From a virus (taxonomy: Duplodnaviria > Caudoviricetes), in the IMG/VR virus record IMGVR_UViG_3300017914_000417, positions 1 to 62,851 of that record: a stretch of DNA of 62,851 nucleotides, one strand, 5' to 3'. The translations under genes and the position numbers were made by a program. Below, piece by piece: positions 2,270 through 47,687 of this stretch. Position 1 is the first letter of the stretch. The number at the start of each line of letters is the position of its first letter. A model generated the notes under the pieces. It did no database searches. It was given only the letters and a program-made list of their open reading frames with translations, and was not told where the DNA came from.

Positions 2270-2350
2270 CGACAGACCTTTTTCTTCTTTGGTCATGTCG
2301 TTTCTCCAAAGCCCCCTACTGTTTGATGACGGCAGTAGGGGGTATTTTAT
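2270..2350 (+). ncRNA. Candidate antisense small RNA (two hairpins, anti-RBS segment)
   Basis: Hairpin CGACA-GACC/GGTC-A-TGTCG, then TTTCTCC, then terminator; 2292-2308 is the exact reverse complement of 47676-47692. Confidence 0.55.
2312..2350. terminator. Intrinsic terminator between the convergent arms (possibly bidirectional)
   Basis: Stem CCCCCTACTG/CAGTAGGGGG followed by TATTTTATT. Confidence 0.75.
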
Positions 2351-5300
2351 TCCCACTCACGGGAGTACTGGAGTAGCGAGGCGCGTAGCATTGGGCTAAG
2401 AGTGATGCCGTTGTGCATATTCTTACTTGTCTTTATATGAGTCTCGATAGATTTGTTTATAGTTTTGCTGTCAATACCTGCACCTTTTGCGGCATGTTTT
2501 TTGTTAAACTTCTCTATGTCTTTCAAAGCCTTTGTACGGTCATACGGACTACCAGCCCTTATCGCCATATAGAAACGCCGTAACAGCTTCGTGCGTTGTT
2601 CCAAGATGCTCCGCTCTATGCCTTTTAGAGAACGGTTTCTTTCCTGTTCAAAGTTATATCGTGCAGGGGTAAACCCTAAGAACTTACCGAAATGCTCAGT
2701 TAGAGTTATATCGTCCAGAATTATATCACCACGTCTTGTCTTGAACGCACCGTCTCTTTGTAGCCGCCCGACTAGTGAAGTGTATGCGTTAGCAACAGCA
2801 GGGGGTAAGAAGCCTTCAATCCCTCGTTCGATATCTCCGTTCAGCAAGTCATTACCTGCTCTAACACCTCTGCCCAATGTACTTAAGAACGGGCCCCCAA
2901 AATAGAAGCCAATAGTTTCCTCTAAAGATGCGTCCTCGTTATATCTGTTCTCTTGCACCACGAGGTCAGTAAGTTTAGCGCGTGACGCTATGTCTACACC
3001 AGTCAGTTGGTTAAGGGCTCCTTTATACCAACCCTCCCCAATAGATTTACGCACGATAGTATCGAAGTCTTCCTCATCGTCTTCAGTGAACATAAGGTCG
3101 TACAGTGAAGATATTACACCGTATAAAGGCAATCCATGTACCCCCGCAAAGAACAAGGCCGCACCGTGCATACTAACTAGTTGTTTACGTGCTAACGCCC
3201 GTAGTTCAGGATCTCCAGTAGAGCTGTAATCTATCGCTCTGAGTGCAGATTTGAACATAGTGTAGTACATATTAAGACCATAACTCTTATACATAAGAGC
3301 GATACGCCCCAGCCCTTCTTGAGATAATCTCGGTGCAGTTTCGAGAGCTAGGCCACCGTTAAGTTGCTCTGCTTGGTAGATAGCTTCAGATGTAGCTAAC
3401 TCGTTTTTCTGCGCAGTGGTTAGGTCGTTAGTGTTTATATATTTACCTTCTACTTCAGAGAATATACGAGGTTTGGTATCTATCTCTTTTCTTAGCAACC
3501 TGTAGTTAGCAAACAGTATGGTTTGTCTGTTAAACTTCTCCACTATGTTAAAACCAAATGCTGACAACTCTACGGTTTTATCCGCTAAACCTTTTGCTCT
3601 AGCACTCTCATCAAGGCCGAGATTATCCAGCAGGAACGACCGCGCTAAGTACCCTCTTTCTGCCGCCGCCTTAATTATGGGTGTATAGGCTTTTAGGATT
3701 TGTTTCTCTTCGTTAGTCAGGTAGTCTAGACCCTCTTTGAGAGTGTAGTTACCGTCTTTGTCGACATCGAAGTACTCATCAACTTGTTCTGGTTTGTCTT
3801 TGTTACCAAAGATCCTGCGCTGTTTAGGTAGCCCTACGACAAGTTTAGACATATTTGTAGCTTCGGATATAGCGCCTATAGTGTCGTCCATACCATGCCT
3901 AGCCGCCATATAAGGGGCGGCAAACAACGGTATCTGAGATAAGTTAATTATCGCTGACGATGTGTTGAACCCGATTGTATATAAAAAGGCGAGTTGATTA
4001 GCCCCCTTTACGAACGGCTCGCGTTGCTTGTTCTTAGCACCGTTACGCGCAAAATCTAAGCGGTTAGTAAGCTCTACTTTAACATTCTGTACATCAGCGG
4101 CTAGCTTCTGCTTAAAACCTTTCATGCCAGCGGCAGGGGGGTCGGTAGGCTTGATGCCTTCTAATTCTTTCTGCAACTCTCTAAACGTGACACCGTACTT
4201 TAGTTTTACCGCCTGTCTACCGATATCATACGCTTTAGTTTGTAGAGCTAGGCCTGTGTCTTCGATAAACCCAGCAGTTCCTTTACGTTTTTGCAGTGAC
4301 TTAGCAAAAGAAGTTTCAGGAAGAGTATCTACGAACAGCCGCATAAACCGCTCTTTAACTATCGGGTCAACGTTAGTGCTATCCAGCAATTCAAAAGTCT
4401 GCCTAACAAAGGAGCTAGGCGGAGTTTGCTCGAAGAACTTACTAGTTTGTGTGTCCTCTGTTTCTACAGTCAAGTTAGGGTCTTTACGTAGTTCTCTTGC
4501 AAAAGCGTCTCTCTCACTAATACTTGTGTATGCGAAAAACGCGTAGGACTCTTCAGGGCTTTGTGCCGCTTTGTTGATTACTTTCAGTGTGTATTGGCCT
4601 TCACGAACAAGAGGGAAATACACTTCTAATGACCCCGATGCAAACAAACGAGCAAAGATATCATTCTTCAGTTTTTTAGCTCTTGCTTTTCCGTCTTGCA
4701 TATCTTTGGTCATGCTGTCGATTTCGCCAAAGATTACAGATTTCAACTCTGCGTATTGCTTAGAATACAATTCACGTATCTGCTGATACATCTTCTTGCC
4801 ATCTGCACCGAGAGCATCCCAATCCCTACGTTGCATATCCCATATCTCAGCTAGATTGTTACCATCCTTGTCGATTCGCGGTGTGCCGTCCTTGTTTTCG
4901 TAGTTCGACCGCGCTCGCTGTGGGTCTACCTGATACAGTGTAGCTCCGTACTTACCGTTGTAGATTACACGGTCTAGTGCTGTTTTCTTTGTGGGGTTTG
5001 CCTTTGCCCACGGCGCCCATTTTTCACGGATAAAATCGTTTACAACTTTATCAGAATCGTTTATCGCCCCACGTTGTTCTTCTATGGCCTTGTGGATTCT
5101 TGCCCCGATGTTCCCCAGCCCTACTAAGTTAGCTATATCGCCCATAGACTTTGTGCCTACAAGACCCATAGCAAGGTTCTTGATTTTTGTGTTGCTGGTC
5201 AGGAAAATATCTAACAGTTTGTTTGCTGGCTTAGTACCTCGCCCACTTTGCACGCCACCTAAGAATTTACCCGTTTCAGAGGAGGCCACGCCTTGCTGTG

Positions 5301-8300
5301 CTATTTGACTAATACCATCTGGTGTACCTGCCATATATAGTAGGCCAGCGTTTCTAGTCTCAGGCGATACCGCTAACAGTCCGTCAACAAGACCGTCAAA
5401 CTTGTCCTGTGCAGAACCTATCTTCTTAGAGTCGAGACCTACAAGGTTACGTACGAAGTTAGTTAATGTATTGAGAAAACGTTGTAGTGCGCTTATAGGC
5501 TTGCCGTCTGGATGGATACCACCTAGCTTTGCTTGGAACTCAGGGTTAGTCATAGCTTCTGCTACAAATTCATCCACAGACTGAGCGCCATAGTAGGTAT
5601 CCAGCACGTCTTTTACTTCGTTAAACAACTTGGTCAGCTGTTTAGTTATAGGGTGCGACTTGTTGGCAAGTGTAGCATTAGTTGCAGCGTGCACCATCTC
5701 GTGTAGGATAGTATGCGGATTCATACCTATTTCGGCATCAAGCGTAATAGTGTTGGTCTTAGGGTCAAACATACCTGCACCGAGCTTGCCATTAGGCATA
5801 CGGATAAGACCTGTTACTTCTACTTTTGTATCCCCAACATATTTTTGCAGCTTCGAGGCTATCTTACGTACGTTAGGATCTGGTGACGTAGCCGACAACG
5901 CTGCCAGGGCCTCACCAAGTTCTCCTGCTTCTAACAACTTCTTTATAGTTGGGTGTACAGGGGTATCCAGCGCCATTATAGCATCGGCATCGAGAAAGTC
6001 TGGTAAGAAATCTAGGTCGTCTAGGTCGCTAAGAGTTTCACGGAAATCAGCGCCTGTGAATCGCGCATTAAACTCTTTAAGGTCTTTCTGTACCTCTTTA
6101 GCGTATTCTTTAGCTTTCTTCGCTTCTATCTTACGCTGTTCTGCTACCTTGTCTCGTCTGGTACTTTCTTTCCGTTTTTGGTCGGAGAACGATTCTTCTT
6201 GCTGTTCAACCAGCTCATCTAAAGTTTTGTTAGCTTCAGGGCTTAGATTTTTACGTACCCATTCTTTAGCGTTATTAGCGGCTTGCTTCCCTTTACCAGC
6301 GAAATACTGCCGAGCCCCTGGGGAATCCTGTGCAGTAGTTTGTTCTTGGTCGTTACCAAAAATAGATTCGTGGGCTATGGCTTCTAGCGCATCGTTAGCA
6401 CTTTCGTGGGTAGAAAAGTATTTTTGTGCGTCACGTTCTTGAGCGGCTTCTGGTGTTTCTTGTTTCTTAGAACGCTGCTTTTTTAGTTTTGTTTTCACCA
6501 AAGAAATAACTTTATCTGTGTCCTCTACAGACGCAGGGCCTAGTTTTGGCTGTGTGTAAAACTCTAGCTTAGATGATTCCGCACGGACTTCTGTAGGTGC
6601 TACAGCTTTCTCAACTTTTGCCCGCTTTGATATCTTGTTAAGAGCCTTTACCTCGTCTTTTAACGCTTGGGCTGTAGTTTGGCGTGCGGCCTTATCTACT
6701 TTCGCTTGCGCGGCTTTAGCGGCTTTCTTTTTCGCAGCTGCGGTTACTTTTGGTTGGGCTACTTTAGCTTTTGTAACAGGCACAGGAGCAGCTTTTGCGG
6801 CCTTTTGCGCTTTCTTAGCCGCAGCTACTTGGGCGTTAGCTTTTGCTTTTGTAATACGCTCTATAACTTCTTGCCCTGACATTGTGGACTCTTGAAGTTC
6901 TGGCGATGGTGTAACGGTTTGTGGGGTTGTTAAGTCTGCACCAACAGGTTCTGGCACGCGAGCGCGTTCCCTATCTGCCGCCAAACGCTGCACGAGTTCC
7001 GCAGGGTCAAAGGTATCGCGGTCAGTTTCGGCAGCGGCGACTGGTTGGTCTAGTGTATCGTCGAGCTGTCCTTGTCTGACATTATCTCTGCGAGGTAATA
7101 GTTCAGGGCGATCCAGTCGTCTGGCTCCAGCTTCTGTAGTGCTTTCGGGAACTCGCTCGGCTCTGGCAGCTTGCTCCAGCTCCAGTACACCATCCTCAGT
7201 GCTTCTTCTAGATTCTTCTGCGACAGGACTGGTAGGTACAGGATCTCTTCTTCCACTATCAGGTCGTCCATCTCGTCTAGCTCGTACATCTGCACCTCCC
7301 TCGCTATCCGTTTCGGCAGCGTCGAGTGCAAGAGATTGCTGCCTAGAATCTTTACGCGCAGCTTCTAACTCTAGTTCGGCTCTCTGGTTCTCACGAACTA
7401 CCTCGTTAAACTGTTGTTCGTCCCGAATCCGCATATTGCTCTCATCGAGGCGTCTTTGTATGTCTGCACGGGCTTCTGCGTCTTGCTCCTCATCAAGCAT
7501 ACGCTCCAATGCTACAGTTTCTTCCACTGTCCCTGCTGGTGGATCTTGTCGGGTACCTAGATCTTGTCCTGTAAATAACTCACCCTGTGTTAAATTTGCG
7601 GGGAGCGGAGTAGGTGTGCGCTGCTGTGCTTGTACTTCTTCATCCTGATCGGTCATTGCGTCAGGCTGTAAGTTAGGATCTTCTGCTAATCTAGCTAGTT
7701 CGTCTTGCGACCTAGAAGTTCTGCCTTTTCTTCCTTGTAAGAAGTCTATAGCACCCTGAAATACTGCGCCAGCCATACCGCCAGCTTGAGCCTCTTTAAT
7801 TGCTTCTTCGTTAAAGAAGTCTGCTTCAGGATTGTACCCTTGCTCAATCGCGTTCTGTGCTAACGCCGCACCAAATTCCTGCGCTGCTTCTAATCCGCCT
7901 GTGCTAAGTGCGGATCGTGCTTTTTTCCTAAGCGTGTCAGTAGGTCCGTTTACAAGCACTCTCTGTAGTACTTTGTTTACCCCAGGAAGTTTGTTTAAGA
8001 ACCTAACAAATGGTATTACTTCAGTGGCTCCGACTAGCCCACCTAATCTTTCAGCCTGCTCTTCTTCCTCTTTCGTTGCACCGAAAGCTCTAGCTCGACT
8101 ACTAGCCTCACCAACACCCGCACCGACACCCATAGCAGCACCGACACCAAGACCTATCGCACTAGTAACTCCCGCCCCTGCACCTAATGCGGGCGCTCCT
8201 AAAGCCACTGCCGCAGCTGGGGCTAAAAAGCCAGCAATAGACCCAAGCCCAGACCCTAGCAAGTACGATAGGCTATCTCTGTCTGCAACATCATATGTGG

Positions 8301-8679
8301 TGGCATCTCTAAAACGGTCTAGCTGCCTTTCAACACTTTTTTCGCCTTGCTCATCTAGGAGTAGGGAAGCGCCACCTTCAACAACAGACGCACCTGTGCT
8401 AGTAAAGCCTTCAGAAGCACCTTTAGCAAGAGACTCAAACATCCCTTGATCGTCTAGCTCAGCTTGTTTTTTCTTTTCTAATGCAGCGGCTAAGTCGCGC
8501 TCGTATAATTCTTCTGGGGATGGGCCAGCACTGGTAGTTGATTGTGTACCAAAAATAGGCGCAGATTGAGCCGCAAGGTCTCGCTGTAACGCAGCAATTA
8601 GCTCATCGTCGGTAGCGTCATCAGGCCCTTCGATGGTGTAAATTTCGCCATCAGGCCCTTCGATATTATACCTACGCAT
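2347..8679 (-). CDS. Giant internal virion/ejection protein, polyvalent type (zincin-like peptidase, PLxRFG-like segment)
   Basis: 2110 aa, last gene of late arm; HTILHEMVH...EFVAEA; YFPLVREGQY; duplicated N-terminal IEGPD. Confidence 0.75.
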   Translation of the reverse strand: MRRYNIEGPDGEIYTIEGPDDATDDELIAALQRDLAAQSAPIFGTQSTTSAGPSPEELYERDLAAALEKKKQAELDDQGMFESLAKGASEGFTSTGASVVEGGASLLLDEQGEKSVERQLDRFRDATTYDVADRDSLSYLLGSGLGSIAGFLAPAAAVALGAPALGAGAGVTSAIGLGVGAAMGVGAGVGEASSRARAFGATKEEEEQAERLGGLVGATEVIPFVRFLNKLPGVNKVLQRVLVNGPTDTLRKKARSALSTGGLEAAQEFGAALAQNAIEQGYNPEADFFNEEAIKEAQAGGMAGAVFQGAIDFLQGRKGRTSRSQDELARLAEDPNLQPDAMTDQDEEVQAQQRTPTPLPANLTQGELFTGQDLGTRQDPPAGTVEETVALERMLDEEQDAEARADIQRRLDESNMRIRDEQQFNEVVRENQRAELELEAARKDSRQQSLALDAAETDSEGGADVRARRDGRPDSGRRDPVPTSPVAEESRRSTEDGVLELEQAARAERVPESTTEAGARRLDRPELLPRRDNVRQGQLDDTLDQPVAAAETDRDTFDPAELVQRLAADRERARVPEPVGADLTTPQTVTPSPELQESTMSGQEVIERITKAKANAQVAAAKKAQKAAKAAPVPVTKAKVAQPKVTAAAKKKAAKAAQAKVDKAARQTTAQALKDEVKALNKISKRAKVEKAVAPTEVRAESSKLEFYTQPKLGPASVEDTDKVISLVKTKLKKQRSKKQETPEAAQERDAQKYFSTHESANDALEAIAHESIFGNDQEQTTAQDSPGARQYFAGKGKQAANNAKEWVRKNLSPEANKTLDELVEQQEESFSDQKRKESTRRDKVAEQRKIEAKKAKEYAKEVQKDLKEFNARFTGADFRETLSDLDDLDFLPDFLDADAIMALDTPVHPTIKKLLEAGELGEALAALSATSPDPNVRKIASKLQKYVGDTKVEVTGLIRMPNGKLGAGMFDPKTNTITLDAEIGMNPHTILHEMVHAATNATLANKSHPITKQLTKLFNEVKDVLDTYYGAQSVDEFVAEAMTNPEFQAKLGGIHPDGKPISALQRFLNTLTNFVRNLVGLDSKKIGSAQDKFDGLVDGLLAVSPETRNAGLLYMAGTPDGISQIAQQGVASSETGKFLGGVQSGRGTKPANKLLDIFLTSNTKIKNLAMGLVGTKSMGDIANLVGLGNIGARIHKAIEEQRGAINDSDKVVNDFIREKWAPWAKANPTKKTALDRVIYNGKYGATLYQVDPQRARSNYENKDGTPRIDKDGNNLAEIWDMQRRDWDALGADGKKMYQQIRELYSKQYAELKSVIFGEIDSMTKDMQDGKARAKKLKNDIFARLFASGSLEVYFPLVREGQYTLKVINKAAQSPEESYAFFAYTSISERDAFARELRKDPNLTVETEDTQTSKFFEQTPPSSFVRQTFELLDSTNVDPIVKERFMRLFVDTLPETSFAKSLQKRKGTAGFIEDTGLALQTKAYDIGRQAVKLKYGVTFRELQKELEGIKPTDPPAAGMKGFKQKLAADVQNVKVELTNRLDFARNGAKNKQREPFVKGANQLAFLYTIGFNTSSAIINLSQIPLFAAPYMAARHGMDDTIGAISEATNMSKLVVGLPKQRRIFGNKDKPEQVDEYFDVDKDGNYTLKEGLDYLTNEEKQILKAYTPIIKAAAERGYLARSFLLDNLGLDESARAKGLADKTVELSAFGFNIVEKFNRQTILFANYRLLRKEIDTKPRIFSEVEGKYINTNDLTTAQKNELATSEAIYQAEQLNGGLALETAPRLSQEGLGRIALMYKSYGLNMYYTMFKSALRAIDYSSTGDPELRALARKQLVSMHGAALFFAGVHGLPLYGVISSLYDLMFTEDDEEDFDTIVRKSIGEGWYKGALNQLTGVDIASRAKLTDLVVQENRYNEDASLEETIGFYFGGPFLSTLGRGVRAGNDLLNGDIERGIEGFLPPAVANAYTSLVGRLQRDGAFKTRRGDIILDDITLTEHFGKFLGFTPARYNFEQERNRSLKGIERSILEQRTKLLRRFYMAIRAGSPYDRTKALKDIEKFNKKHAAKGAGIDSKTINKSIETHIKTSKNMHNGITLSPMLRASLLQYSREWE
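7050..7289 (-). CDS. Candidate overprinted gene (79 aa) in the +1 frame of the giant ejection protein
   Basis: GGAGGT 4 nt before ATG at 7289; acidic, amphipathic helical sequence MYELDEMDDL...DKDSSTIH. Confidence 0.55.
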   Translation of the reverse strand: MYELDEMDDLIVEEEILYLPVLSQKNLEEALRMVYWSWSKLPEPSEFPKALQKLEPDDWIALNYYLAEIMSDKDSSTIH

Positions 8680-17733: not shown

Positions 17734-18350
17734 TACGCATTACTCACAAAAGAAACTTCTATTTGCGCCCCAACGATACCTGACTTAGTAGTAAATGCGG
17801 CTACTTTAGGGCTATTACCTGTGCCATTTACGATTACAGTTATGTAATCTCCTGCTACCATAGACTCCATAACCTGAAGGTTGAAGGTTACATACTGCTG
17901 CCCGTTAATAGCGTCCATCTGGTAATACCTAGTGCTGTAATCTATATCTGTGCCATTCTTTTGTAGCCAAACATAGAAGCTACCTGTACCGCTCCCAACC
18001 GTAGTTAGTCCTTCTACCGTTATTTTATACACACCATCTGCACTTACAGTTATACGCTGGTTACTGTTTTCTGCGGTTATACCTGCGCTAGCAAATCTAT
18101 CTTGAGCAAAACTTACCGCGGTGTCCGTATTAGGAGTAAGATTCAATGTCGTAGAGGAATAGAACGAACCATGCGGCTGGTAGATAAACTTACCGCCCTG
18201 GTCGGATGACAATACAGCACCGATAGCTGTGGTTATCTGTCCGAAAAACAAACGAAGCACATTATGCAGCTGGTCAGAAAACCGTCTGTTGTACTGCTCT
18301 TCTGGTAGAGGCAGAGCTGGCTGTGTAGGTTTGTTTATCTCGTTAGCCAT
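17733..18350 (-). CDS. Tail protein with C1q/TNF-like beta domain
   Basis: Helical N-terminus; DGVYKITV, VWLQKNGTDI, AGDYITV beta motifs. Confidence 0.55.
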   Translation of the reverse strand: MANEINKPTQPALPLPEEQYNRRFSDQLHNVLRLFFGQITTAIGAVLSSDQGGKFIYQPHGSFYSSTTLNLTPNTDTAVSFAQDRFASAGITAENSNQRITVSADGVYKITVEGLTTVGSGTGSFYVWLQKNGTDIDYSTRYYQMDAINGQQYVTFNLQVMESMVAGDYITVIVNGTGNSPKVAAFTTKSGIVGAQIEVSFVSNA

Positions 18351-20218
18351 TAGCGCTGTCCGTCAAGTCTAGTATGTATTCTAGGGATGCCTAACTGCCA
18401 CGTAACTCCTAATTCGGTGGACTCTATCTTGAAGCTCAGCTGCCGCCCTCGCACCCTGATACCTAATTCTTCGGTGAACTCTTCAATCGGCGCAACTGCA
18501 CTGCGTACTACACTGCCGCTACTGTTACCTCCAACTGACGCTGGTGAGTTATACCCTGACCCCGAGTTGTTTGCAGGAGTCAACGTCACCGTCGCCGCAG
18601 GAGTAGAGGCGGTAGATCCGTCAAACGTAACATCTGGCACAAGCTGATATACAAAAGAAAACTTGTCGCCGTCCCCTACATCAAATTGTGCTGTGGTTAT
18701 AGACGCAGGAATAGCAGCGGGGGTAGAGTTTTCAGCGTTATCCACACCCACTTCGTGTTGTACAATTTTATATCCGTACGTAGCGGCTATTGGTTTGTCA
18801 CGCTGACCTGACTCCAGCCACGCACTGCGGTCCAGATTGCCATAGTACCAAATGTTATCCACATAATTATACACAACGTATCTATCGTTGCTGTTAGATC
18901 CTTCAGCGCAATAGAACCACCAGATCTCAGAGAAAGCCTCATTTGATCCTGCAAATACTTGGTCGTACTGGTCGAAGTTAAAGTCATTAAATATGTAGCG
19001 TCGTACATCACAAGGCAGTGGGCGTACTCTACCATCATATACATAGAAGTTGTCATGCCCCATCCAGAACGCTGTGTTGGCTGCGAAAGCCATAGAGTTA
19101 GGAGAAGCTATAGAAATGTTTTCGCCAAGCACCTGTGCGCCCCATACAATAGGTGCGCCTTGATACTGTAGTGAATAGAGTGCGGAGTTAGTCCAGACCA
19201 GAATCTCCTGACGACCCTGCCTAGCAGCAATAATCTCAGAACCACTAGATAGTCTAAGAGACCCAGCTTGGTTGGTAGCCGCAGGTGTCCAGTTTGCTGC
19301 GTCTTCTTGGTCAGACCATCTAATAAGCATGGTATCTTGTGTAGAACTACCTAACGGATTTGCCCCAAAACAAAACACGAAACGGCTAACGTCCGAAACC
19401 AACACTTGGTTTTGGCTAGTTGGTGTATCAGAAGCGCCCGCCAGAGTGCTGAGTTTTACTGCTTTAGTTGTTAACCCACTAGAAGCATCCCAATAAAACG
19501 GCTCGCTACCGCGATACCCAAGTATTAGGTCTTCCCCAAAGTTACTCTGTGACCACAATCGTAATGTGCTAAGAGACGCACCGCCTGTACCCCAGACATC
19601 CTCGCCCCATTCACCGCCGCCCCAACCAGAAAGAGGTACAGCGTAGGTAGTGCCTATAGGTACTTCGTATTTTGCTATTGCTGCGGTGCCGCCATCAGCT
19701 GTGTCAGACGCATCAGCCGCTGTAGCTACTTCAATCTCAAACGTATTAGCATCGGTGACTACAGTAATTTCATGGTTAGTATTTAGCACAGCAGCAGTGA
19801 CATTGCCGCCTAGACTGGTTGCCCCTGAGAAAGTAACGTAATCACCCACAGCAGCGCCGTGTCCATTCTCAGTAACTGTAATAGTTGTGCTTCCATCTGT
19901 AGCAGAAAAGGTGGCATCTCCAGCGGAAGTCTCGTCACGAAATGGGGTAACATCATTATACACCCCACCTTGCTCGATGTAGAACTTCTCGTTAGTTCCT
20001 ACTCCTGTAAACGCCCCACCAGATAGAGAACTCCAAGAAAACAAAGAACGGCATACACCCTCAAACGTATTATCAGAAATACGCTGCCACCCGCCTATCT
20101 TTTCAGGAAACCCCTGCCGAAACCGCACTTTATCGCTCTCGTACCAAGAACCTTCGCTTGCGTACCGAGTTTTTTCTCTGTTAACTCCTGCTTTAAATGC
20201 TAATTTCTGTAGAGGCAT
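18350..20218 (-). CDS. Tail hub/DNA stabilisation protein (P22 gp10-like beta-propeller)
   Basis: 622 aa; DKVRFR.G.PEKIGGW start, IRWSDQED, Trp-rich repeats; precedes ejection genes. Confidence 0.6.
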   Translation of the reverse strand: MPLQKLAFKAGVNREKTRYASEGSWYESDKVRFRQGFPEKIGGWQRISDNTFEGVCRSLFSWSSLSGGAFTGVGTNEKFYIEQGGVYNDVTPFRDETSAGDATFSATDGSTTITVTENGHGAAVGDYVTFSGATSLGGNVTAAVLNTNHEITVVTDANTFEIEVATAADASDTADGGTAAIAKYEVPIGTTYAVPLSGWGGGEWGEDVWGTGGASLSTLRLWSQSNFGEDLILGYRGSEPFYWDASSGLTTKAVKLSTLAGASDTPTSQNQVLVSDVSRFVFCFGANPLGSSTQDTMLIRWSDQEDAANWTPAATNQAGSLRLSSGSEIIAARQGRQEILVWTNSALYSLQYQGAPIVWGAQVLGENISIASPNSMAFAANTAFWMGHDNFYVYDGRVRPLPCDVRRYIFNDFNFDQYDQVFAGSNEAFSEIWWFYCAEGSNSNDRYVVYNYVDNIWYYGNLDRSAWLESGQRDKPIAATYGYKIVQHEVGVDNAENSTPAAIPASITTAQFDVGDGDKFSFVYQLVPDVTFDGSTASTPAATVTLTPANNSGSGYNSPASVGGNSSGSVVRSAVAPIEEFTEELGIRVRGRQLSFKIESTELGVTWQLGIPRIHTRLDGQR

Positions 20219-27337: not shown

Positions 27338-30300
27338 TTACGCCTGTGACTCTGCCCATGTAATACGCGCCGAACATTTGAACGGTGAGCTAGCCGAGAT
27401 ACCAAATGTATCTGAAACTTTAACAGCAACCGTGATAACGTCAGGTCCATTCGGGAAGACCCCATCGCCACCTAATATGGCGTTACCTAAGTCTACCAGA
27501 TCTCCTAGCTTGTAGTCTTGTGTATTCGACAGACGTACACCGTTGTTATCTGTTGCACCGCCCGAAGCACGGAAGTTAAATATTTCTACCCCGCCTGATA
27601 CAGTCTCGCCTGATTCGTGTTTCTGGAGTTGTGATAGCGATGGTTGCCCCACAGTTTCCCAGCTAATCGCGCTAAAGTCACCGTTCAGGATCAGCTTAAC
27701 TTCGCAGTCATGTGTTAGAACCAGACCAACCTCGTTCATCTTCAACTGCATTCTGTTAAGGATATCTCTTTCTCCTAAGAACCCTGTCAAACTAGAGTCC
27801 GCAGAAGGCGCAAGTCTTAGAGATACGAGAGGAATAGTGTCGGTACCAAGATCCACCGCTGTATCCGCTGCACCGCCCGCAGGAGCACCAATATTGACAA
27901 CTTCACCACTGGAAACACTTGGGTAAACAGCAGGTGGCTGATAATACAGGTAACGTCCTACATATATGTAGACACGAACACTGCTGCCAGAGAAATCAAT
28001 ATAGTCAACAGCCTCTCCATTAAGTGACTCATCAGCTGTAAACAACGGGGTACCTGTTGGGAACTTATCCGAATCTGAGGACGGGAAAGACAACCGCACG
28101 TAATAATCTCTCTGGAATCGACTTACAGCAGTGCTAACTAGTGAAGACGTAGCGTTGGCGGTAGCGGTGTTACTGTCACCACCTGTAAACGATAGCGCTC
28201 TAGAAGTCGCTGTAAAGAGGTACGCTTTATCGTCATCAAATGTACCATCCATAATAACCGAAGTACCCCAGTGGAACAGCTTCGGTGCATATGTTGGGTT
28301 CTCGTCGTTTATAACTTCGTAACGTGCTGGGATGTTACCTGAACGCATGTATGCTTCATCGAGTCTGTTGTTGTGGATGAACTCATGAACGTAACGGACA
28401 TGACCTTTACGATCCTTGAAGCCGAAACGAATCTTACCCGCACCGTACCAAGAGTAGTCCATATAGGCCATTTGAATCTTATTAAGGTCAATAGTAAACC
28501 CTTCTGGACCTTCACCATCACACTTATCAATATTCCAATCATCCTGTGGGACTTTAACATCCTCAGTTTTAGTAAGAATAATCCCGTCAGAACCGACCCC
28601 TCTATACTCAGGCTGCACAAACATTTCGGTAGCATTTGTTATAGATACTACACGGTAAGTTTGTCCGCGAATAACTACCTGATCTCCTGCGACTAACTGA
28701 GAGTTAAACAGAGTGTCAGTACCTACTATCTGCTGGCTATCGTTTGTTACCGCGATAGTGCCTGAAAGCTGAGTAACAGAAGAACGCCGCACACAAGAAA
28801 GTACCGAACCATTGTACTCAAAGAAAAACCCGTTCTGGTCATCAAACATGCCCGCACGAGTTCCAGCACCTGAATACCCGTTCAAGTTAAACTTCGCTAT
28901 ACCCCCCGCTATAGAACTGCTCGGTGTGTTAGCTAAAGTAAAGGTAAAGGTAAAGTCGTCAGTTACCGTAATATCAAAGTCACCGTTGTATTCATTGTCA
29001 GCAGCGCCAGATATCTTTATCGACTGCCCTGTAGCCATTCTATGTGGATACAACGTAGTACCTGTAGCGGTTGTGCTACTAGAGGTAAGTGTTTTAAACG
29101 TTATCGGCGGGTTGAAGTTAATAGCCAACGATGTCTGAATACCTTTACCTGACTGGTAACGGAAGTACTTACGGGTCTGTCTAGTAATCTGCGAGAACGG
29201 CGCAGTACCCGCCGCAATCTCTACCCCACCATCGAACGGTCTGTGGATAGCAAAACCGTCAGGACGTGCGTATACAGCTGTCCTCGAGAAATGTTTCTGT
29301 CCAGTTAAAGCGCGTCCAAAAGGAGCATCCAACTGCAAAGACAGATCGCTAGGTACGGATATAACTTCTCTTTCGATTAACTGTCCTGGGGTGTCACTAT
29401 CGTCTTTAATGAATATGGTATCTCCAGGCTTATAAGTACGTTTAAACAGCGTATTAGTGCCTGTGACCAACGCGCTAGATTCCGAAGTAGCAACTGTACC
29501 CGTAGCTTCCGCCATACCTGCTAGAGACGCGGCTTTAAAGTTATGTGTTCCAGAGCTAACAGCTGTAAGAGATATAGCATTTCCCCCCAACGCGTCTTCA
29601 AAACTTTCGCCTAGCTGGATTGTTGTATCATCTACTACGATTGCGTAGTAGTCAGTGCCGTCAGTCAGCCCTCCAACTGCGGTGTTACCATTTACACCGT
29701 AAGTTATTTTCCCGCCTAAAAGTAAGTTGTGGGTAGAATCGAAAGTAATCTGATCGTCAGTGGTATCTACTCCAGTATTACCGTTAATGGTATATGTTTG
29801 CCCTACAATCTCTTGCCCTGTTTCAAACTTAAGAGTTGACCCAGTTGTAGCATTGCTAGCTGTGTATACGCCGTCAATGGCACCTACTTGTGCTTCTGTT
29901 TGAAACTCTAGATCAGGAGAACCCTTACCGTTTAGCTCAATAAGTTGCCCTGTTGGGCTATCCGCCCGCAACGATATACGATTAGTGTTGATAACATTTG
30001 CATACACGGTGCCTGCGCTAAGGCTAGGGTACGCCCAGTTAGCGTCGTAGTAGTCAATCATATCCTGACAGATATTACGTATAGTCGTTGTACTCAGAGT
30101 GGTGGCGTCGTCTTTAGTAAACGCAAAGCGAATATGCCAGTGAGTAGTGCTGAAATCAGTATATGTATGAGTACGGTGATATAAGTATGAGCTATTATTG
30201 GTCTGTGCGTAGCCGTACATACTACTGTCACTTCTAGTAGTACCCTTTTGAATATGCAGAGTTACAATGTAGAAATCATCGCTAGAGGCAGTCCCACCTA

Positions 30301-33049
30301 TTCTAGACCATGTAATCAAACCTTCCCAGTTTTCCCCTGATGCAGACGTATAATAGTTGCCGCTGCTCTGGATTAAAGTTCTAGTACCCCCGTTGGTGCC
30401 ACTATGAGCGTTTTGATTTGTATAGCTGCCGCCACGCAAAGCCGCATACAGGAAAACATCGAAGAAAAGTCTATACGAAGTATTAGGTCTTTCTATATGG
30501 AAAGCAGATATATGCCTGTTAATAGACTGATTGTTTGATATCTGTTTTGATATATAGGTAGAGTTGTTACCGTTAGCGTTCCTCGCAGGTGAAATACCCG
30601 CGTGTATACGTGATGAAAACGGCCTACGTAAATCTGGATCGGACATCTGTGTATAAGATTGGTTAGCTTGGTATACATAACCACTATTAAACGGCAGATA
30701 TAACCTAACTCCATGCTGACCACCAGATTGGTTGTATATGACAGAATCAGTGTTTACCCCTAAGTTGGAAGTAACAAAATCTGTAGTGGTAACGCTATTA
30801 TCAGTTAATGCGCTATCAAGAGCAGCTTCCCAAATAGCAAATTCGTCCGCTGTACTGCCTACTCCTGGCTCCCCAGGCGTACTATCTTTAGTTCCTGTAG
30901 GTGTAGTTGGTAACACACCACTATTTACTGTTCCGAGAGTAACGGCATCACCTGACGCCAGCCCATGTCCTGGAATATAGAAACTGTTTTTTGTGACGTT
31001 ATCGCCTGTACCTGACCAACTATATGTACCTGTAATTTGATTTATTTCGTAAGCGCTGCCCCCACCATTAGGAGTGAGTCTAAAACGGTCATCGGAAACT
31101 TTTTCCACACCGTAAGTGCCAGCTCCAATAGTGCTTGCAGTTGGTGCGGTAGCGAAATAGCCGCCTCCTCCAGAAACAATTTTTATATCGTCCCCAGCAG
31201 ATTTAGTGAACGAAATAGTACCTCCACCAAGCAACCCGTGATCTTCAGAGAATAAAGTATCCCCTTCAGGATCTCGTTTCATAGGCAACCAGAACACATC
31301 GCGTTCATTATAGGTAACGTTGTAAAACCCAGCGTTGTAGGAATACATACGAATATACCCACCACTATTACCTTGATACATGTACCCAGCACGAAAGCTG
31401 TTCTTGTAATTGTTTTGGTCGCTGAAATAACCTTCGTGTTCGTAAGGATGATACACGTTAGGAGTAGTAGTGCTTTCGCCAAACACCATAGCAGATTGAT
31501 TATTTGTCGTGTAATCGTACTGCTCGTATAAGAATCCTAAATTACTGGCACCCTGACTTGTAAGCCTATGAGAAAGTCGCCGCCCTGTACGAGACGCCCA
31601 AACAGCACGTTCAATTTTACCTGTACCCCATTGAGCACTACCACTTAGTCCCCAACCTTGTGCGTCAGTATCGTAGTATGTGCGGGCATCCCAACCAGAG
31701 TAAGCGTTGGTCTGTGAACCGTTACCAAACTGGTTGGCATATGTGTAAGCGTAGGCATATGAGTCCCTGTACCGACTGTGGTACGCCCTTCTAATATGAT
31801 ACACCAAGCCAATACAAGCACGTCCGTAATTATAAGTACCCTGGCTAGTCAGTGATATAGCGCTACCTGTACGTGATGTAGATAGGCTAATGTTGTCGTT
31901 ATCAACATAGCTTACAAAATAAATTTCAAACCTATCAAGGCCCCCAATCGCTGTATCTCCTGAAGGTGGGATGTAGATAACTGTATCCCCTGTACGCATC
32001 CTGTGGTTAGTCCATGTGATTGTATTGTTTGATGTGTTAACAGCAGAGGCACCAAACTTAATATGGTGGACTGGCACATACTTTTTTGTTTCGGTTTTAG
32101 TAAGGTCAACCGTAGGTGTTATGCTTACAGTTTGTCTGTCGTCCACATGAGGATTACCATCGGCAGCGTCTGTGGTTGTAGCAGTCATAGTTAGTTTTTT
32201 AACAGCCACTGTGTTTAGCAAGTAGAACGCTGAGTCCTCAACAAACCCATGTGGGTTAGGGGTGGTTACGGTCAAGGTAGAGTTAGATGAGTTTTCATCT
32301 GTCTCAATACCTGTGTCAGTCTGATAGTTAATCTGAGAACCTGAATAAAACTGCCCTGGAGTGATAGTTGTATATACAGTACCGATATTACCTGTTGTAG
32401 TCTGTGCTGCCGCCGCTTGATACGTAAAAGATTCATCGCTAGGCACAGATTTTACAAGAAACTTACCTTCAGCGGATCTGGATGTCAGACCTTGAATATC
32501 AATAGGTGTGCCAATGACCAAACCGTGTTGCACATCACAGGTAACGGTGAGGATATCAGATCCATTAGAAGCGGTTATGCTCTGCACGATATCTAGGGCG
32601 GTCTCCCCATCAGCAGTAAAGAATGAGGGAACGTTGTTTGAACGCTCCAATGTCTCCCATTTGGTAGACTGAAGGCCGTATTCAAAGTCAGTATCAATGA
32701 GGTTTTCAGGGGTCGATACACGGATCTTGTGTACAGGATCTAGGAAAGAATCGTGCACATCCATTTTCTGGGAAACACGATCGACAAAAATCTGCATTTG
32801 AGTATCGTCATCAATAGCAGGCGACTGAGCGCTCATGTCTATATCTAAGACGATAGTAGTTTGTTCGGTGTCCTCATCGTAGGTTACAGAAGTAAACCCT
32901 TTAGCAGAGTCTGAGAACTGATAGATAATTTTGTTATTAGTGACATCAGTAATCAGCAGAAGTTCTTCTGCCTTTACGTGTTCGTCTACTACAATAGTAT
33001 CGTTAGCCGAGTCTACGGTGTAGTATGAAGCTAATAGTTGTTTTGCCAT
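27338..33049 (-). CDS. Very large virion structural/fibre protein
   Basis: 1903 aa, beta-rich; RVSTPENLIDTDFEYGLQ and RQTRKYFRYQSGKG blocks I recall from large cyanomyovirus structural proteins. Confidence 0.65.
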   Translation of the reverse strand: MAKQLLASYYTVDSANDTIVVDEHVKAEELLLITDVTNNKIIYQFSDSAKGFTSVTYDEDTEQTTIVLDIDMSAQSPAIDDDTQMQIFVDRVSQKMDVHDSFLDPVHKIRVSTPENLIDTDFEYGLQSTKWETLERSNNVPSFFTADGETALDIVQSITASNGSDILTVTCDVQHGLVIGTPIDIQGLTSRSAEGKFLVKSVPSDESFTYQAAAAQTTTGNIGTVYTTITPGQFYSGSQINYQTDTGIETDENSSNSTLTVTTPNPHGFVEDSAFYLLNTVAVKKLTMTATTTDAADGNPHVDDRQTVSITPTVDLTKTETKKYVPVHHIKFGASAVNTSNNTITWTNHRMRTGDTVIYIPPSGDTAIGGLDRFEIYFVSYVDNDNISLSTSRTGSAISLTSQGTYNYGRACIGLVYHIRRAYHSRYRDSYAYAYTYANQFGNGSQTNAYSGWDARTYYDTDAQGWGLSGSAQWGTGKIERAVWASRTGRRLSHRLTSQGASNLGFLYEQYDYTTNNQSAMVFGESTTTPNVYHPYEHEGYFSDQNNYKNSFRAGYMYQGNSGGYIRMYSYNAGFYNVTYNERDVFWLPMKRDPEGDTLFSEDHGLLGGGTISFTKSAGDDIKIVSGGGGYFATAPTASTIGAGTYGVEKVSDDRFRLTPNGGGSAYEINQITGTYSWSGTGDNVTKNSFYIPGHGLASGDAVTLGTVNSGVLPTTPTGTKDSTPGEPGVGSTADEFAIWEAALDSALTDNSVTTTDFVTSNLGVNTDSVIYNQSGGQHGVRLYLPFNSGYVYQANQSYTQMSDPDLRRPFSSRIHAGISPARNANGNNSTYISKQISNNQSINRHISAFHIERPNTSYRLFFDVFLYAALRGGSYTNQNAHSGTNGGTRTLIQSSGNYYTSASGENWEGLITWSRIGGTASSDDFYIVTLHIQKGTTRSDSSMYGYAQTNNSSYLYHRTHTYTDFSTTHWHIRFAFTKDDATTLSTTTIRNICQDMIDYYDANWAYPSLSAGTVYANVINTNRISLRADSPTGQLIELNGKGSPDLEFQTEAQVGAIDGVYTASNATTGSTLKFETGQEIVGQTYTINGNTGVDTTDDQITFDSTHNLLLGGKITYGVNGNTAVGGLTDGTDYYAIVVDDTTIQLGESFEDALGGNAISLTAVSSGTHNFKAASLAGMAEATGTVATSESSALVTGTNTLFKRTYKPGDTIFIKDDSDTPGQLIEREVISVPSDLSLQLDAPFGRALTGQKHFSRTAVYARPDGFAIHRPFDGGVEIAAGTAPFSQITRQTRKYFRYQSGKGIQTSLAINFNPPITFKTLTSSSTTATGTTLYPHRMATGQSIKISGAADNEYNGDFDITVTDDFTFTFTLANTPSSSIAGGIAKFNLNGYSGAGTRAGMFDDQNGFFFEYNGSVLSCVRRSSVTQLSGTIAVTNDSQQIVGTDTLFNSQLVAGDQVVIRGQTYRVVSITNATEMFVQPEYRGVGSDGIILTKTEDVKVPQDDWNIDKCDGEGPEGFTIDLNKIQMAYMDYSWYGAGKIRFGFKDRKGHVRYVHEFIHNNRLDEAYMRSGNIPARYEVINDENPTYAPKLFHWGTSVIMDGTFDDDKAYLFTATSRALSFTGGDSNTATANATSSLVSTAVSRFQRDYYVRLSFPSSDSDKFPTGTPLFTADESLNGEAVDYIDFSGSSVRVYIYVGRYLYYQPPAVYPSVSSGEVVNIGAPAGGAADTAVDLGTDTIPLVSLRLAPSADSSLTGFLGERDILNRMQLKMNEVGLVLTHDCEVKLILNGDFSAISWETVGQPSLSQLQKHESGETVSGGVEIFNFRASGGATDNNGVRLSNTQDYKLGDLVDLGNAILGGDGVFPNGPDVITVAVKVSDTFGISASSPFKCSARITWAESQA

Positions 33050-41005: not shown

Positions 41006-41195
41006 CATCTGACTCCAAATAGTTTTTCGCAAGGTCTTCTACGTGATTGCGGCAGGCGTCCAGACCTCGGATGACCCCTACGACTTCCTTGTAAGCAGCA
41101 AAGTCTTGCGCTCCGCCACCACCAAGAAACTGTTGTGCTGATTGTTTATCTTCGTCAATTTTTTCTATAAGCACGTCAAAGACGGTTTTAGCCAT
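40998..41195 (-). CDS. Hypothetical protein
   Basis: 65 aa helical; coupled to portal stop. Confidence 0.65.
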   Translation of the reverse strand: MAKTVFDVLIEKIDEDKQSAQQFLGGGGAQDFAAYKEVVGVIRGLDACRNHVEDLAKNYLESDDE

Positions 41196-43609
41196 TATTT
41201 ACCTTTCAACAAGTTTATCATATCCATACCCGCTTGGTTCTTGGTCTTAACGGTCTCATTACGAGACTTTACACCTGCTTTACGGGCTTCGAGTTTGATT
41301 TCCGCTTTATCAATAGCGGTATCATTTTTATCTTTCTCGATTTTACGCTTAAGCTCAGCAGCTTGCAGTTGTAGGTCGGCCTGATCTTTGGCCTTCTTAC
41401 GCTGAACTTCTTCAAGTTTTGCCTGTGCTTCCATCTGTCTGATCTGCAAGTTCGGATCTTGTGCTTGCTGCTCAGCCTGTTTCTGAGCTGCTTGCTGCTG
41501 GTGAGCTTGAGTAAGCTGTTGTCCAGCATCAGATACAAGACGAGATAGTTGGACTTCGATTTCTTCAGGCAGCTCTTCGTTCGGCGGTGGCAATTCAACA
41601 CCCAACCGTTCTTCAATCTGCTGTCTGTACTGGAATCCAAGATGCTCAGCAATATGCGCTTGGAGTGACGACATAATTTGCTGTGCTTGTGGGTTCTGTC
41701 CAATCATCTGCGCTATCATAGGATCTTGCATAAATGACATATGTGCGGAGATATGTGCTTGATGATCTTGGTATATGAAGGCTTTCATTGGCTTGCCAAC
41801 CAATGCCGCCATGTTCTCGCTTACAGGATCTGTAGGTTTGGCGTCGTCCGAAGTAGGTACGAGTTTATCTGCGTTCTTAACTCCAAGAACTTCTATCATC
41901 TGCCTATGTAACTGAGGTAGGTCATAGATCTGAGGCGCAGACTGTGCCATCTGTAGCACGGCCTGGTACTGTACGACACGTTGTGCCATAGTAGAGCTGT
42001 TAGGGTCACTAACGGGTATTACGTCAACCATCATGTAGTCTGCTTGACGTGCGCTGATTTCTCCCCGTACAGGTTCGTAATCGTAGTCTATAGGTGCGTA
42101 CTCAGCCATAATTGACTTAAGTAGTTTAAACTCTTGCTTCATGGCGTAGTGTACACGAGACTGTACAGCAGCCATTGGTTTCAGAGTGCGCTCCAGAAGT
42201 GCAAGTGTTGTACCCACAGGAGCGTTTGCAGACATGTCAGAGATGTTCATGTCCGAGATCGCGCCAAGTCTGCGGCCTTCCTGCGTAATCTTATCGAGCA
42301 GGGCCAACAGTGTCTGGCTTGGTTCTTTGTATGGCATAGGCATGATGTTGTCGCGTATGCTGCCTGAAGGCACGTCAACATCTTTCCACTCACCAGGTTC
42401 TACTGGTCTATCATCCCCCTTGATACGGAGTCCTCTGGACTTCAAACCCCCTGGGAGATTAGATAGGGTTCCAGCATCTACTAGCTGACGTATCAAGGAG
42501 GTGCCAGCCCGTGCATACCCACCGATGATATGGATCAACCCAAGCCCATAGAACCCAAAACCTGGGACATATGGGTAGTGGACGAAGTGCTGACGCTTCA
42601 GTGTCAGTCTATCTTCAGGGTTCCAGTTCCTCCGTATACCCAGAACTTCACCCGATCCAACCTCAATGGTCACAACATATGGCTTGGCAATCTCCTCTTC
42701 TGAATCATCTATTCCGTCAATAACTAGATCTGCGTGAACCTCGTACAACGCAAAGCGGTTGTCGTCTGTCAACGAGTACCCGCCCTCTTCTGCTTTCCGC
42801 TCCTCAATATCGGAGTGGTATGGCTGTGGCTCGCCCAAGTCTATATCTCTATAGAACCCGACGGCCTGTAACTTCTTAAGTTCGTTCTTGGTCTTACGCA
42901 TCACATGAGTAACGCGTTCTGCTGTTTCGATGTGGGTGGCACCGTAAGGTACGATAACATCTTCAGCTGGGATAAACAGAGCAACCTGCCGCCCCATATT
43001 TGGATCGTAGTACACTTTCTTGAAAGCAGAACCTGACAAGCCCAAGCTGTAGAGCAAACGCTCGTGCTCTGGTCTGTACTCAACCATGTTCTCGGTGAGC
43101 TGGTAGTTCATGTCTGCTTTTACTCGTGCAGATGCGTCTACTTTATCTTTTGTTTCTTCGCCTAAGATTTTGACCTTTACAGGGCCAGCGGCAGGGAAAG
43201 TTTCGGACATAGTCTCAGCCTGAAAGCGGATGGCAGCTTCCGCTAAGACTGTAGAGTATACGCCACATGCACCTTCCCACGGATCAGTGCGCTCCTCATA
43301 CTTGAAGCCAAGAACATCTAAACCCTTGACGAAAGTATCCGCCCACTCTTTACGGCTGTCCTCGTCACTCTCGATAGCCGCCATCAGCTCATCAGAGATC
43401 ATACTAAGTACATCGTCATCTAACCCTTCGGCTAGATTGGCGTCGAACGACATTACATCTCCGACATCGGCATCGGGGATAATAGTAATCTCCATACTAC
43501 CGTCATCTAATGTAACGGACTCTGGGTTAACAACTTCTATCTCTAGAGGCTGCGTCTGTTCTTCATCTAACCCTGTTGGGGCTTGGTATACGCTTTTTTC
43601 TACTGCCAT
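41195..43609 (-). CDS. Portal protein (P22-like, long C-terminal barrel)
   Basis: 804 aa after TerL; GSAFKKVYYD, FYGLGLIH; Gln-rich C-terminal coil. Confidence 0.85.
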   Translation of the reverse strand: MAVEKSVYQAPTGLDEEQTQPLEIEVVNPESVTLDDGSMEITIIPDADVGDVMSFDANLAEGLDDDVLSMISDELMAAIESDEDSRKEWADTFVKGLDVLGFKYEERTDPWEGACGVYSTVLAEAAIRFQAETMSETFPAAGPVKVKILGEETKDKVDASARVKADMNYQLTENMVEYRPEHERLLYSLGLSGSAFKKVYYDPNMGRQVALFIPAEDVIVPYGATHIETAERVTHVMRKTKNELKKLQAVGFYRDIDLGEPQPYHSDIEERKAEEGGYSLTDDNRFALYEVHADLVIDGIDDSEEEIAKPYVVTIEVGSGEVLGIRRNWNPEDRLTLKRQHFVHYPYVPGFGFYGLGLIHIIGGYARAGTSLIRQLVDAGTLSNLPGGLKSRGLRIKGDDRPVEPGEWKDVDVPSGSIRDNIMPMPYKEPSQTLLALLDKITQEGRRLGAISDMNISDMSANAPVGTTLALLERTLKPMAAVQSRVHYAMKQEFKLLKSIMAEYAPIDYDYEPVRGEISARQADYMMVDVIPVSDPNSSTMAQRVVQYQAVLQMAQSAPQIYDLPQLHRQMIEVLGVKNADKLVPTSDDAKPTDPVSENMAALVGKPMKAFIYQDHQAHISAHMSFMQDPMIAQMIGQNPQAQQIMSSLQAHIAEHLGFQYRQQIEERLGVELPPPNEELPEEIEVQLSRLVSDAGQQLTQAHQQQAAQKQAEQQAQDPNLQIRQMEAQAKLEEVQRKKAKDQADLQLQAAELKRKIEKDKNDTAIDKAEIKLEARKAGVKSRNETVKTKNQAGMDMINLLKGK

Positions 43610-47596: not shown

Positions 47597-47655
47597 ACAA
47601 TCAGAGTTTGACCAAATTTTTTCTTGTTTTCCTCCTTTGGTCATTCTCTGGTTGT
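47597..47655 (+). ncRNA. Leader hairpin with 19-nt U/C-rich loop antisense to the RBS of gene 46500
   Basis: Stems ACAATCAGAG/CTCTGGTTGT and TGACCAAA/TTTGGTCA; loop 47623-47633 is the reverse complement of 46487-46497. Confidence 0.5.
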
Positions 47656-47687
47656 ACCAACAACAACTTGTCATATGGAGAAACGAC

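Follow-up and report, generated by a model that had tools for sequence, protein, structure and literature searches.

A probable small gene nested in the +1 frame of a giant virion-type gene of marine phages

The DNA analysed here, called the window throughout, is the whole of IMG/VR virus record IMGVR_UViG_3300017914_000417 (Duplodnaviria; Caudoviricetes), a record of 62,851 bp that is of seawater origin and rated complete. Its minus strand carries an open reading frame (ORF) of 2110 codons (2347..8679) for a giant virion-type protein, P0002. Wholly within this ORF, on the same strand, lies a second ORF of 79 codons that runs from an ATG at 7289-7287 to a TAG at 7052-7050 and encodes the protein P0001. 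Its offset of 1390 nt from the start of the larger ORF places it in frame +1. Judged from sequence comparisons, the stretch 7289..7050 is very probably a genuine protein-coding gene. The same small protein family appears in the same frame and at the same relative place in seven diverged marine-phage lineages, and of the two frames the nested one is conserved and bears the codon-position pattern of purifying selection.

A preliminary description of the window had proposed a real gene at this place, inside what it called an ejection protein, with a GGAGGT just upstream of the ATG and an Arg-rich main-frame reading over the same span. The coordinates and translation of the ORF match those quoted there, GGAGGT stands at 7299-7294 of the minus strand, 4 nt 5' of the ATG, and the main frame reads, exactly as given, VRARRDGRPDSGRRD...RRLDRPELLPRRDNV, which is Arg-rich. 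Its view that the main frame looks like an off-frame reading holds in part: the stretch is of low complexity and is not homologous between lineages, but it keeps the usual low third-position G+C and must itself stay open. The core claim, a real nested gene, is supported by same-frame homologues in six further lineages. Stops in the +1 frame of relatives and a lack of homologues had been named as the outcome that would speak against it; the frame proved to be uninterrupted, and homologues exist.

A small protein family in the +1 frame

The loci of relatives were retrieved by homology of the giant protein, and not by the nested peptide. Eight of them (L002, L007, L008, L011, L013, L014, L015 and L016) cover the corresponding part of the giant gene and represent six lineages, the peptide of L014 being the same as that of L013 and the peptide of L016 the same as that of L015. 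Three others (L006, L009 and L012) end before the nested region and stand outside the count. L002 was yielded by a metagenome scan that used as query P0005, a relative of P0002 to which we return below, and that did not yield P0005's own contig. A +1-frame ORF of 61-78 codons is present in all eight loci containing that part of the giant gene. It begins 1813 nt from the giant start in L002, 1915 nt in L007, 1996 nt in L008, 2032 nt in L011, 2359 nt in L013 and 1843 nt in L015; with the 1390 nt of the window, all seven offsets are congruent to 1 modulo 3. Relative to the giant protein, every one of these ORFs is placed after the N-terminal domain and before a Lys/Ala-rich segment. The giant proteins of the six lineages are 29-35% identical to P0002.

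In alignment A8, which comprises the peptides of the seven lineages, residues E28, A30, P48, L51, L54, W59, L62 and L66 (P0001 numbering) are invariant. Six of the seven peptides end in a His directly before the stop codon, five of the six relatives ending in L-H, and residues 78-79 of P0001 are I-H. Among the first four lineages (window, L002, L007 and L008), 11 columns are invariant in the nested frame vs 3 in the main frame. When P0001 was compared by hhalign with a profile of the L002, L007, L008 and L011 peptides, it was aligned end to end over 69 columns (probability 93.2%, E 3e-7), whereas the main frame of the same DNA, given the same treatment, yielded 3 columns (probability 0.19%, E 0.32). 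Homology over this span is thus found in the nested frame only.

Other loci and ORFs were considered during these comparisons. L003-L005 were rejected as comparable relatives, the part in common being the zincin domain only, and the +1 ORF of L004 (P0019), Arg-rich and unrelated, was rejected as a family member. L008 (5308-5595) and L011 (6584-6871) each contain one more +1-frame ORF, which has an ATG, is 95 codons long and is offset by 25 nt from the giant start; the window gene, unlike these two, has no +1 stretch longer than 43 codons besides the nested gene. The same two loci hold further +1 ORFs that resemble each other (L008 6811-7032 and L011 8147-8332; P0023 and P0025). Their products are basic, off-frame-looking and unrelated to the family, and their similarity is likely a by-product of main-frame conservation.

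The nested ORF appears to possess its own start codon and ribosome-binding site. The start codon is ATG in six lineages and GTG in L013. The motif of the window is GGAGGT, and its counterparts in the relatives are GGAGG (9 nt to the start) in L002, AGGAG (6 nt) in L008, AAGGAGA (6 nt) in L013, GGAGG (11 nt) in L015, a weaker GAGGA (11 nt) in L007 and an imperfect AGGGA (6 nt) in L011. A stop codon of the nested frame precedes the start by 2 codons in L007, by 6 in L008 and by 8 in L002; since these stops are so close, ribosomes are unlikely to reach the nested frame by shifting out of the main one, and internal initiation is the more straightforward interpretation. A scan of positions 6900-7600 found neither a sigma-70-like promoter nor a terminator, so that the nested gene would have to share the long late mRNA. 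On this structural message, ribosomes would initiate internally at the gene's own Shine-Dalgarno sequence and ATG (GTG in one lineage).

P0001 contains 18 Asp/Glu vs 6 Lys/Arg residues. AlphaFold2 predicts two helices (Table 1) with a Pro-rich loop between them, at a mean pLDDT of 69.5 with a five-sequence alignment and of 65.3 without an alignment. The product would be an acidic protein of 61-79 residues in which two amphipathic helices are joined by the Pro-rich loop. The giant protein would read the same DNA as a flexible low-complexity linker, set between its N-terminal hydrophobic domain and its Lys/Ala-rich, zincin and DarB-like parts, and this linker would tolerate any residues that the small gene dictates, so long as no stop arises. 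The A/T-rich third positions of the main frame would be the second positions of the nested frame, and A/T-rich second positions favour codons for Leu, Ile and Val together with those for Asp, Glu, Lys and Gln, which is the make-up of an amphipathic helix.

Database searches returned almost nothing. P0001 had no match in Pfam or PHROG, a match to PF22254 (E 0.03) being below that family's cut-off; a PDB sequence profile search of the nested peptide gave none, the best Foldseek match of its model in the PDB had an E of 2.9, and the ESM Atlas held no usable match. With P0003, the 104-residue stop-to-stop reading, phmmer found only a repeat artefact among 1.84 billion representative proteins: P0016 (E 1.5e-4), a junction motif of 11 Big_5 repeats, which was discarded as spurious. 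Nothing credible emerged from tblastn of three nested peptides against 50,697 GenBank phage records, where a match of P0001 (E 0.8) was rejected as antisense to an annotated gene, and a DNA search of 6500-7900 against GenBank phages gave no match. Peptide-pattern scans of IMG/VR with P0001 and P0002 produced none that was confirmed, those with P0005 produced none, and neither did a metagenome scan with an alignment of the nested region. The alignment of the nested peptides was too weakly conserved throughout to seed a search for related loci.

The only protein found by profile searches of a 5.8-billion-protein set (proteins of 39-139 aa and of 140-2000 aa) was P0026, an 87-residue fragment of the same arrangement from an L002-like phage, a fragment that starts out in the main frame and continues in the nested one. 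Its frame switch is probably a sequencing indel, with inserted bases beside A runs in an early virome data set. In L002 itself (4495-4540), the main-frame codons ACA AAA AAG, just 5' of the nested gene, contain an in-phase A AAA AAG heptamer, and P0026, from a near-identical phage, changes from one frame to the other a few codons further 3'. The family is thus of restricted distribution and lacks a free-standing homologue, which is a weak test, unannotated nested ORFs being invisible to protein databases. Because gene callers forbid long overlaps on the same strand, the nested family is in no protein database, and a single frameshifted fragment is all that represents it among billions of predicted proteins. 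It appears that annotation pipelines have missed a gene that is very probably real.

Codon-position patterns and close relatives

L008 and L011 form a moderately close pair. Their nested genes align without gaps, and 51 of the 216 columns are variable: 14 at nested position 1, 12 at nested position 2 (main position 3) and 25 at nested position 3. Two control segments from the same gene pair hold 53 variable columns (16/114 + 37/300); main position 3 accounts for 36 of them, position 1 for 8 and position 2 for 9. The nested and control segments differ with a chi-square of 21.8 (2 degrees of freedom, computed by hand), and these counts indicate that the three-base rhythm of the variation switches from the main to the nested frame in this segment. 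By hand translation, L008 and L011 agree at 48 of 71 residues in the nested frame vs about 41 of 74 in the main frame.

Closer relatives were sought among the contigs of four runs, aligned to window 6600-7800. For strain X3 the complete list of differences has 15 entries over 1201 bases, 6 of them within the nested ORF. Five of these 6 are silent when read in the nested frame, as against two when read in the main frame; over the ORF, a single residue is changed in the nested protein (S75N, in the variable tail) vs 4 in the main-frame protein. Taken together, the shift between L008 and L011, strain X3 and the homology confined to the nested frame point to purifying selection on the embedded frame.

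Run X18 is more diverged, with 36 differing letters and 5 gaps in the 285 bases of 7015-7299, where the insertions and deletions are net in-frame. On both sides of this piece (6805-7015 and 7299-7442) the contig has other, unalignable sequence in place of that of the window, so that the retained island coincides with the ORF plus its ribosome-binding site. Among the 16 of the 36 differences that were listed, 9 are at nested third positions and 2 at main-frame third positions. Two further relatives of the giant protein were compared as proteins. P0004 (2102 aa, known as a protein only) is 85% identical to P0002; inferring codon positions from the protein sequences puts 13 of 19 assignable replacements at main position 1 inside the ORF vs 104 of 187 outside, a comparison without discriminating power. 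For P0005, identity to P0002 is 40% across the full alignment (338/843) and reaches about 72% for its residues 617-705, in the main frame over 7050-7300 (64 of 89 columns, hand count). The islands of P0005 and X18 suggest that the nested gene may have been moved or retained as a module.

Table 1. Features of the nested gene and of the giant gene that holds it (window positions)
Feature	Position	Strand	Basis
Nested +1-frame gene P0001, 79 codons + TAG; acidic, without Cys; probable new family	7050..7289	-	Translation; seven-lineage alignment A8
Shine-Dalgarno-like GGAGGT	7294..7299	-	4 nt before ATG; purine-rich motifs of relatives 6-11 nt before start
Predicted helix 1, P0001 residues 24-36, family motif Q-V/L-E-x-A-L/M	7182..7220	-	AlphaFold2 with alignment A4; alignment A8
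Predicted helix 2, P0001 residues 56-77, conserved W59, L62, L66, acidic tail	7059..7124	-	AlphaFold2; alignment A8
Main-frame residues 464-543, low-complexity R/D/E/P/G/T linker of P0002	7050..7290	-	Translation of the same DNA
Similarity island in a diverged environmental relative, run X18, one contig	7015..7299		Contig alignment
Host gene P0002, 2110-aa multi-domain virion-type protein, HEMVH zincin motif, DarB-like C-terminal ~750 aa	2347..8679	-	ORF, profiles, neighbours

Counter-evidence, origin and alternative explanations

Several points weigh against a genuine nested gene. Within this sequence alone, the open frame and the Shine-Dalgarno site are each within chance, and the main frame keeps a genome-like low third-position G+C (0.26-0.41) over the nested span. 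The identity of the relatives' peptides to P0001 is just 25-29%, pairwise BLASTP of P0001 to the L002 peptide gives only an E of 0.005, the N-terminal third of the peptide is poorly conserved, and the AlphaFold2 model built with five sequences is only moderately confident. The Shine-Dalgarno motif is weak in L007 and imperfect in L011, and the start of L013 is GTG. Furthermore, the codon-position counts were made by hand from lists of invariant columns and concern one gene pair, and the X18 evidence covers the 16 of 36 differences listed, which do not of themselves establish that the ORF is intact there. Finally, the expression of the nested gene is deduced from DNA, and the function proposed below from gene placement and composition.

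If the nested gene is genuine, the question arises of which frame came first. Its third positions are G+C-rich (0.72-0.81, vs about 0.3-0.4 for the genes of this genome) and no free-standing homologue was found in the searches described above, which together favour overprinting of an existing giant gene. An alternative is that the small gene is the older one, that two neighbouring genes were fused by read-through of the still-working small gene, and that the linker is the overprinted frame. Such an origin would fit with a nested frame that is conserved and helix-forming inside a main frame that is of low complexity and unalignable between lineages, and with the fact that only the C-terminal ~900 aa of the giant protein are common with cultured phages. 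However, no separate-gene homologue turned up in phmmer, profile (only P0026) or GenBank phage searches, and the low third-position G+C of the main frame contrasts with that of the nested frame. By the usual codon-usage criterion, the frame with genome-like usage is the older one, which would mark the main frame as older, although the codon-usage likelihoods of the two frames are about equal here. We regard an older small gene as unlikely, though worth keeping in mind. If it were true, 'polyvalent' phage proteins of giant size could expand and still keep whatever genes they engulf, and a gene engulfed in this way would travel with its host as a module, which would explain the P0005 and X18 islands.

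Another explanation dispenses with internal initiation: a programmed +1 frameshift would yield a shortened giant protein with the nested sequence as its alternative C-terminus. For 25 codons 5' of the ATG the +1 frame of the window contains no stop, and P0026 does read from the main into the nested frame of an L002-like phage. Against this, the stops found 2-8 codons before the start in L007, L008 and L002 leave almost no room for a shift site, a start codon and a purine-rich motif are present in every lineage, and P0026 needs inserted bases beside A runs, for which sequencing error would be the likely cause. A frameshift is thus very improbable.

A further alternative is a chance open frame, in which a hydrophobic-poor linker rarely makes +1 stops and a GGAGG-ATG stands at its head by accident. 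The window alone does little to counter it. The stop-to-stop +1 stretch 7364..7053 is 104 codons long and the second longest in the P0002 gene is 43, but in a scan of the 53 long ORFs of the window seven +1 stretches reached at least 104 codons, and the nested one ranked seventh. Six other genes (41195-43609, 51793-52818, 43609-45162, 47637-48695, 27338-33049 and 18350-20218) hold longer +1 open stretches, of 106-144 codons. In 1000 rounds of synonymous resampling the nested stretch stayed open in 2.2%, and some stretch of at least 104 codons arose anywhere in the P0002 gene in 16.9%; codon permutation gave 4.4%. GGAGG-N3-10-ATG occurs 9 times in the window vs 9.43 expected, and the motif is thus not enriched. 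From the window sequence alone, the open frame is only marginally beyond chance. Codon-usage likelihood makes the two frames about equal over the nested span (difference -8.4 vs a gene mean of +55, sd 15), in part because the nested span is without stops. The longest +1 stretch of the P0002 gene after synonymous resampling has a median of 87 codons, and the real gene's second longest is only 43; off-frame stops in this gene seem to be commoner than codon usage alone predicts.

The signal beyond chance thus comes from the relatives and not from the window. The lack of significant database matches, for the peptide and for its stop-to-stop reading alike, is what a chance frame would show, but chance does not account for the homologous peptides that six other lineages, with main-frame segments that are unalignable, encode in this same frame, nor for variable sites shifted to nested third positions, nor for a start and a stop at equivalent places. 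Moreover, with giants 29-35% identical to the window's, the loci are not recent copies of each other. In our reading, the hhalign contrast and the codon-position shift already refute a chance frame, to which we give scarcely any credence. Least credible of all is a conserved nucleic-acid element (RNA structure or binding site) in place of a second protein: the X18 island between replaced flanks and the raised main-frame identity of P0005 over the span (about 72% vs 40% overall) would suit it, but distant lineages keep the peptide pattern with its start and stop codons and not the DNA, and the three-base period of the variation is phased to the nested frame.

The giant host gene, possible functions and known systems

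The P0002 gene is the last of a minus-strand block of tail and virion genes. The C-terminal ~750 residues of its product match phrog_11358 (E 7.1e-38) and phrog_10089 'DarB-like antirestriction' (E 5.5e-34), profile matches that assign it the C-terminal module of the DarB-like/polyvalent family. By tblastn, the C-terminal ~750-900 aa are 21-25% identical to the giant genes of cultured ~60-kb podophages annotated as 'DarB-like' or 'PLxRFG'. That P0002 is packaged and ejected is an assumption carried by the label 'ejection protein', for which the gene's position at the end of the tail/virion block is the support. Its HEMVH zincin-type motif occupies residues 993-997 (window 5700-5715), H993, E994 and H997 being invariant in nine relatives. 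The N-terminal halves of the giants also have in common a main-frame motif, Q-x-E/Q-L-F-G/T-D/G (window 7560-7600, L007 2925-2960 and L008 7285-7320), which overlaps the first codons of the nested gene in L007, L008 and L011. All or part of the P0002 gene is held by 20 public runs from 7 studies of seawater data, all on record as DNA; the phage that carries the nested gene is thus widespread in such data, and the family spans several uncultured lineages.

What the small protein might do can be approached from where its gene lies. Embedded as it is, that gene is inseparable from the giant gene; the two would share one late message; and the make-up of the small protein is like that of small acidic chaperones with an amphipathic helix. 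For these reasons the tentative guess can be put forward that the small protein is dedicated to the giant one as a partner, e.g. a chaperone or an assembly or ejection helper kept by embedding. The functions suggested in the preliminary description (chaperone, inhibitor or superinfection exclusion) are likewise guesses. An independent role, e.g. against host defence, is about as likely. A predicted complex of the peptide with the zincin domain (residues 885-1125) scored 0.01, which, having been run without controls, counts neither way. If the small protein does work with the giant one, it would offer a handle on the folding, packaging or ejection of these giants.

The nested family, if genuine, would also mean that a conserved gene can be concealed in a structural gene even in large dsDNA phages, where space is not scarce, and that what passes for a 'disordered linker' in a giant virion protein can be no more than the passive read-out of a different gene. 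It would further provide a clean test set for methods of detecting overlapping genes. Embedded genes are already known in phages; in the portion of the literature that was accessible, no description of this family or of its placement in a giant gene was found.

Four known systems lend themselves to comparison. First, the DarB-like/PLxRFG giants of Klebsiella, Pseudomonas, Vibrio, Erwinia and Rhizobium phages have the C-terminal module in common with P0002, whereas its N-terminal half, including the linker with the nested gene, is without a counterpart in those cultured phages. Second, there are the class I type III secretion chaperones: they too are small and acidic and contain an amphipathic helix, and their genes adjoin that of a large protein which has to travel unfolded through a narrow channel. 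The likeness is a functional analogy only, with no homology found in Pfam or the PDB and a nested protein of about half their size. Third, lambda Rz1 inside Rz has the same architecture, and the two products form a complex (PMC6139136), which is the precedent for the partner role put forward above. As in that pair, a larger gene wholly contains the small one, which has a start codon of its own and is read from the same strand in the +1 frame. By contrast, P0001 has no Cys and hence no lipobox, and no apparent signal peptide; it is not a spanin. Moreover, its host gene encodes a 2110-aa protein of the structural block and is not a lysis gene, and there is no sequence similarity.

Finally, overprinted genes are familiar from small viruses, as with E within D of phiX174. 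The likeness is that one DNA is read in two frames, that one product is conserved and the other tolerant or of low complexity, and that standard gene callers miss the gene. The differences are that a 62.9-kb dsDNA phage is under no obvious size pressure, and that here it is the short embedded frame that is constrained and the long frame that is tolerant.

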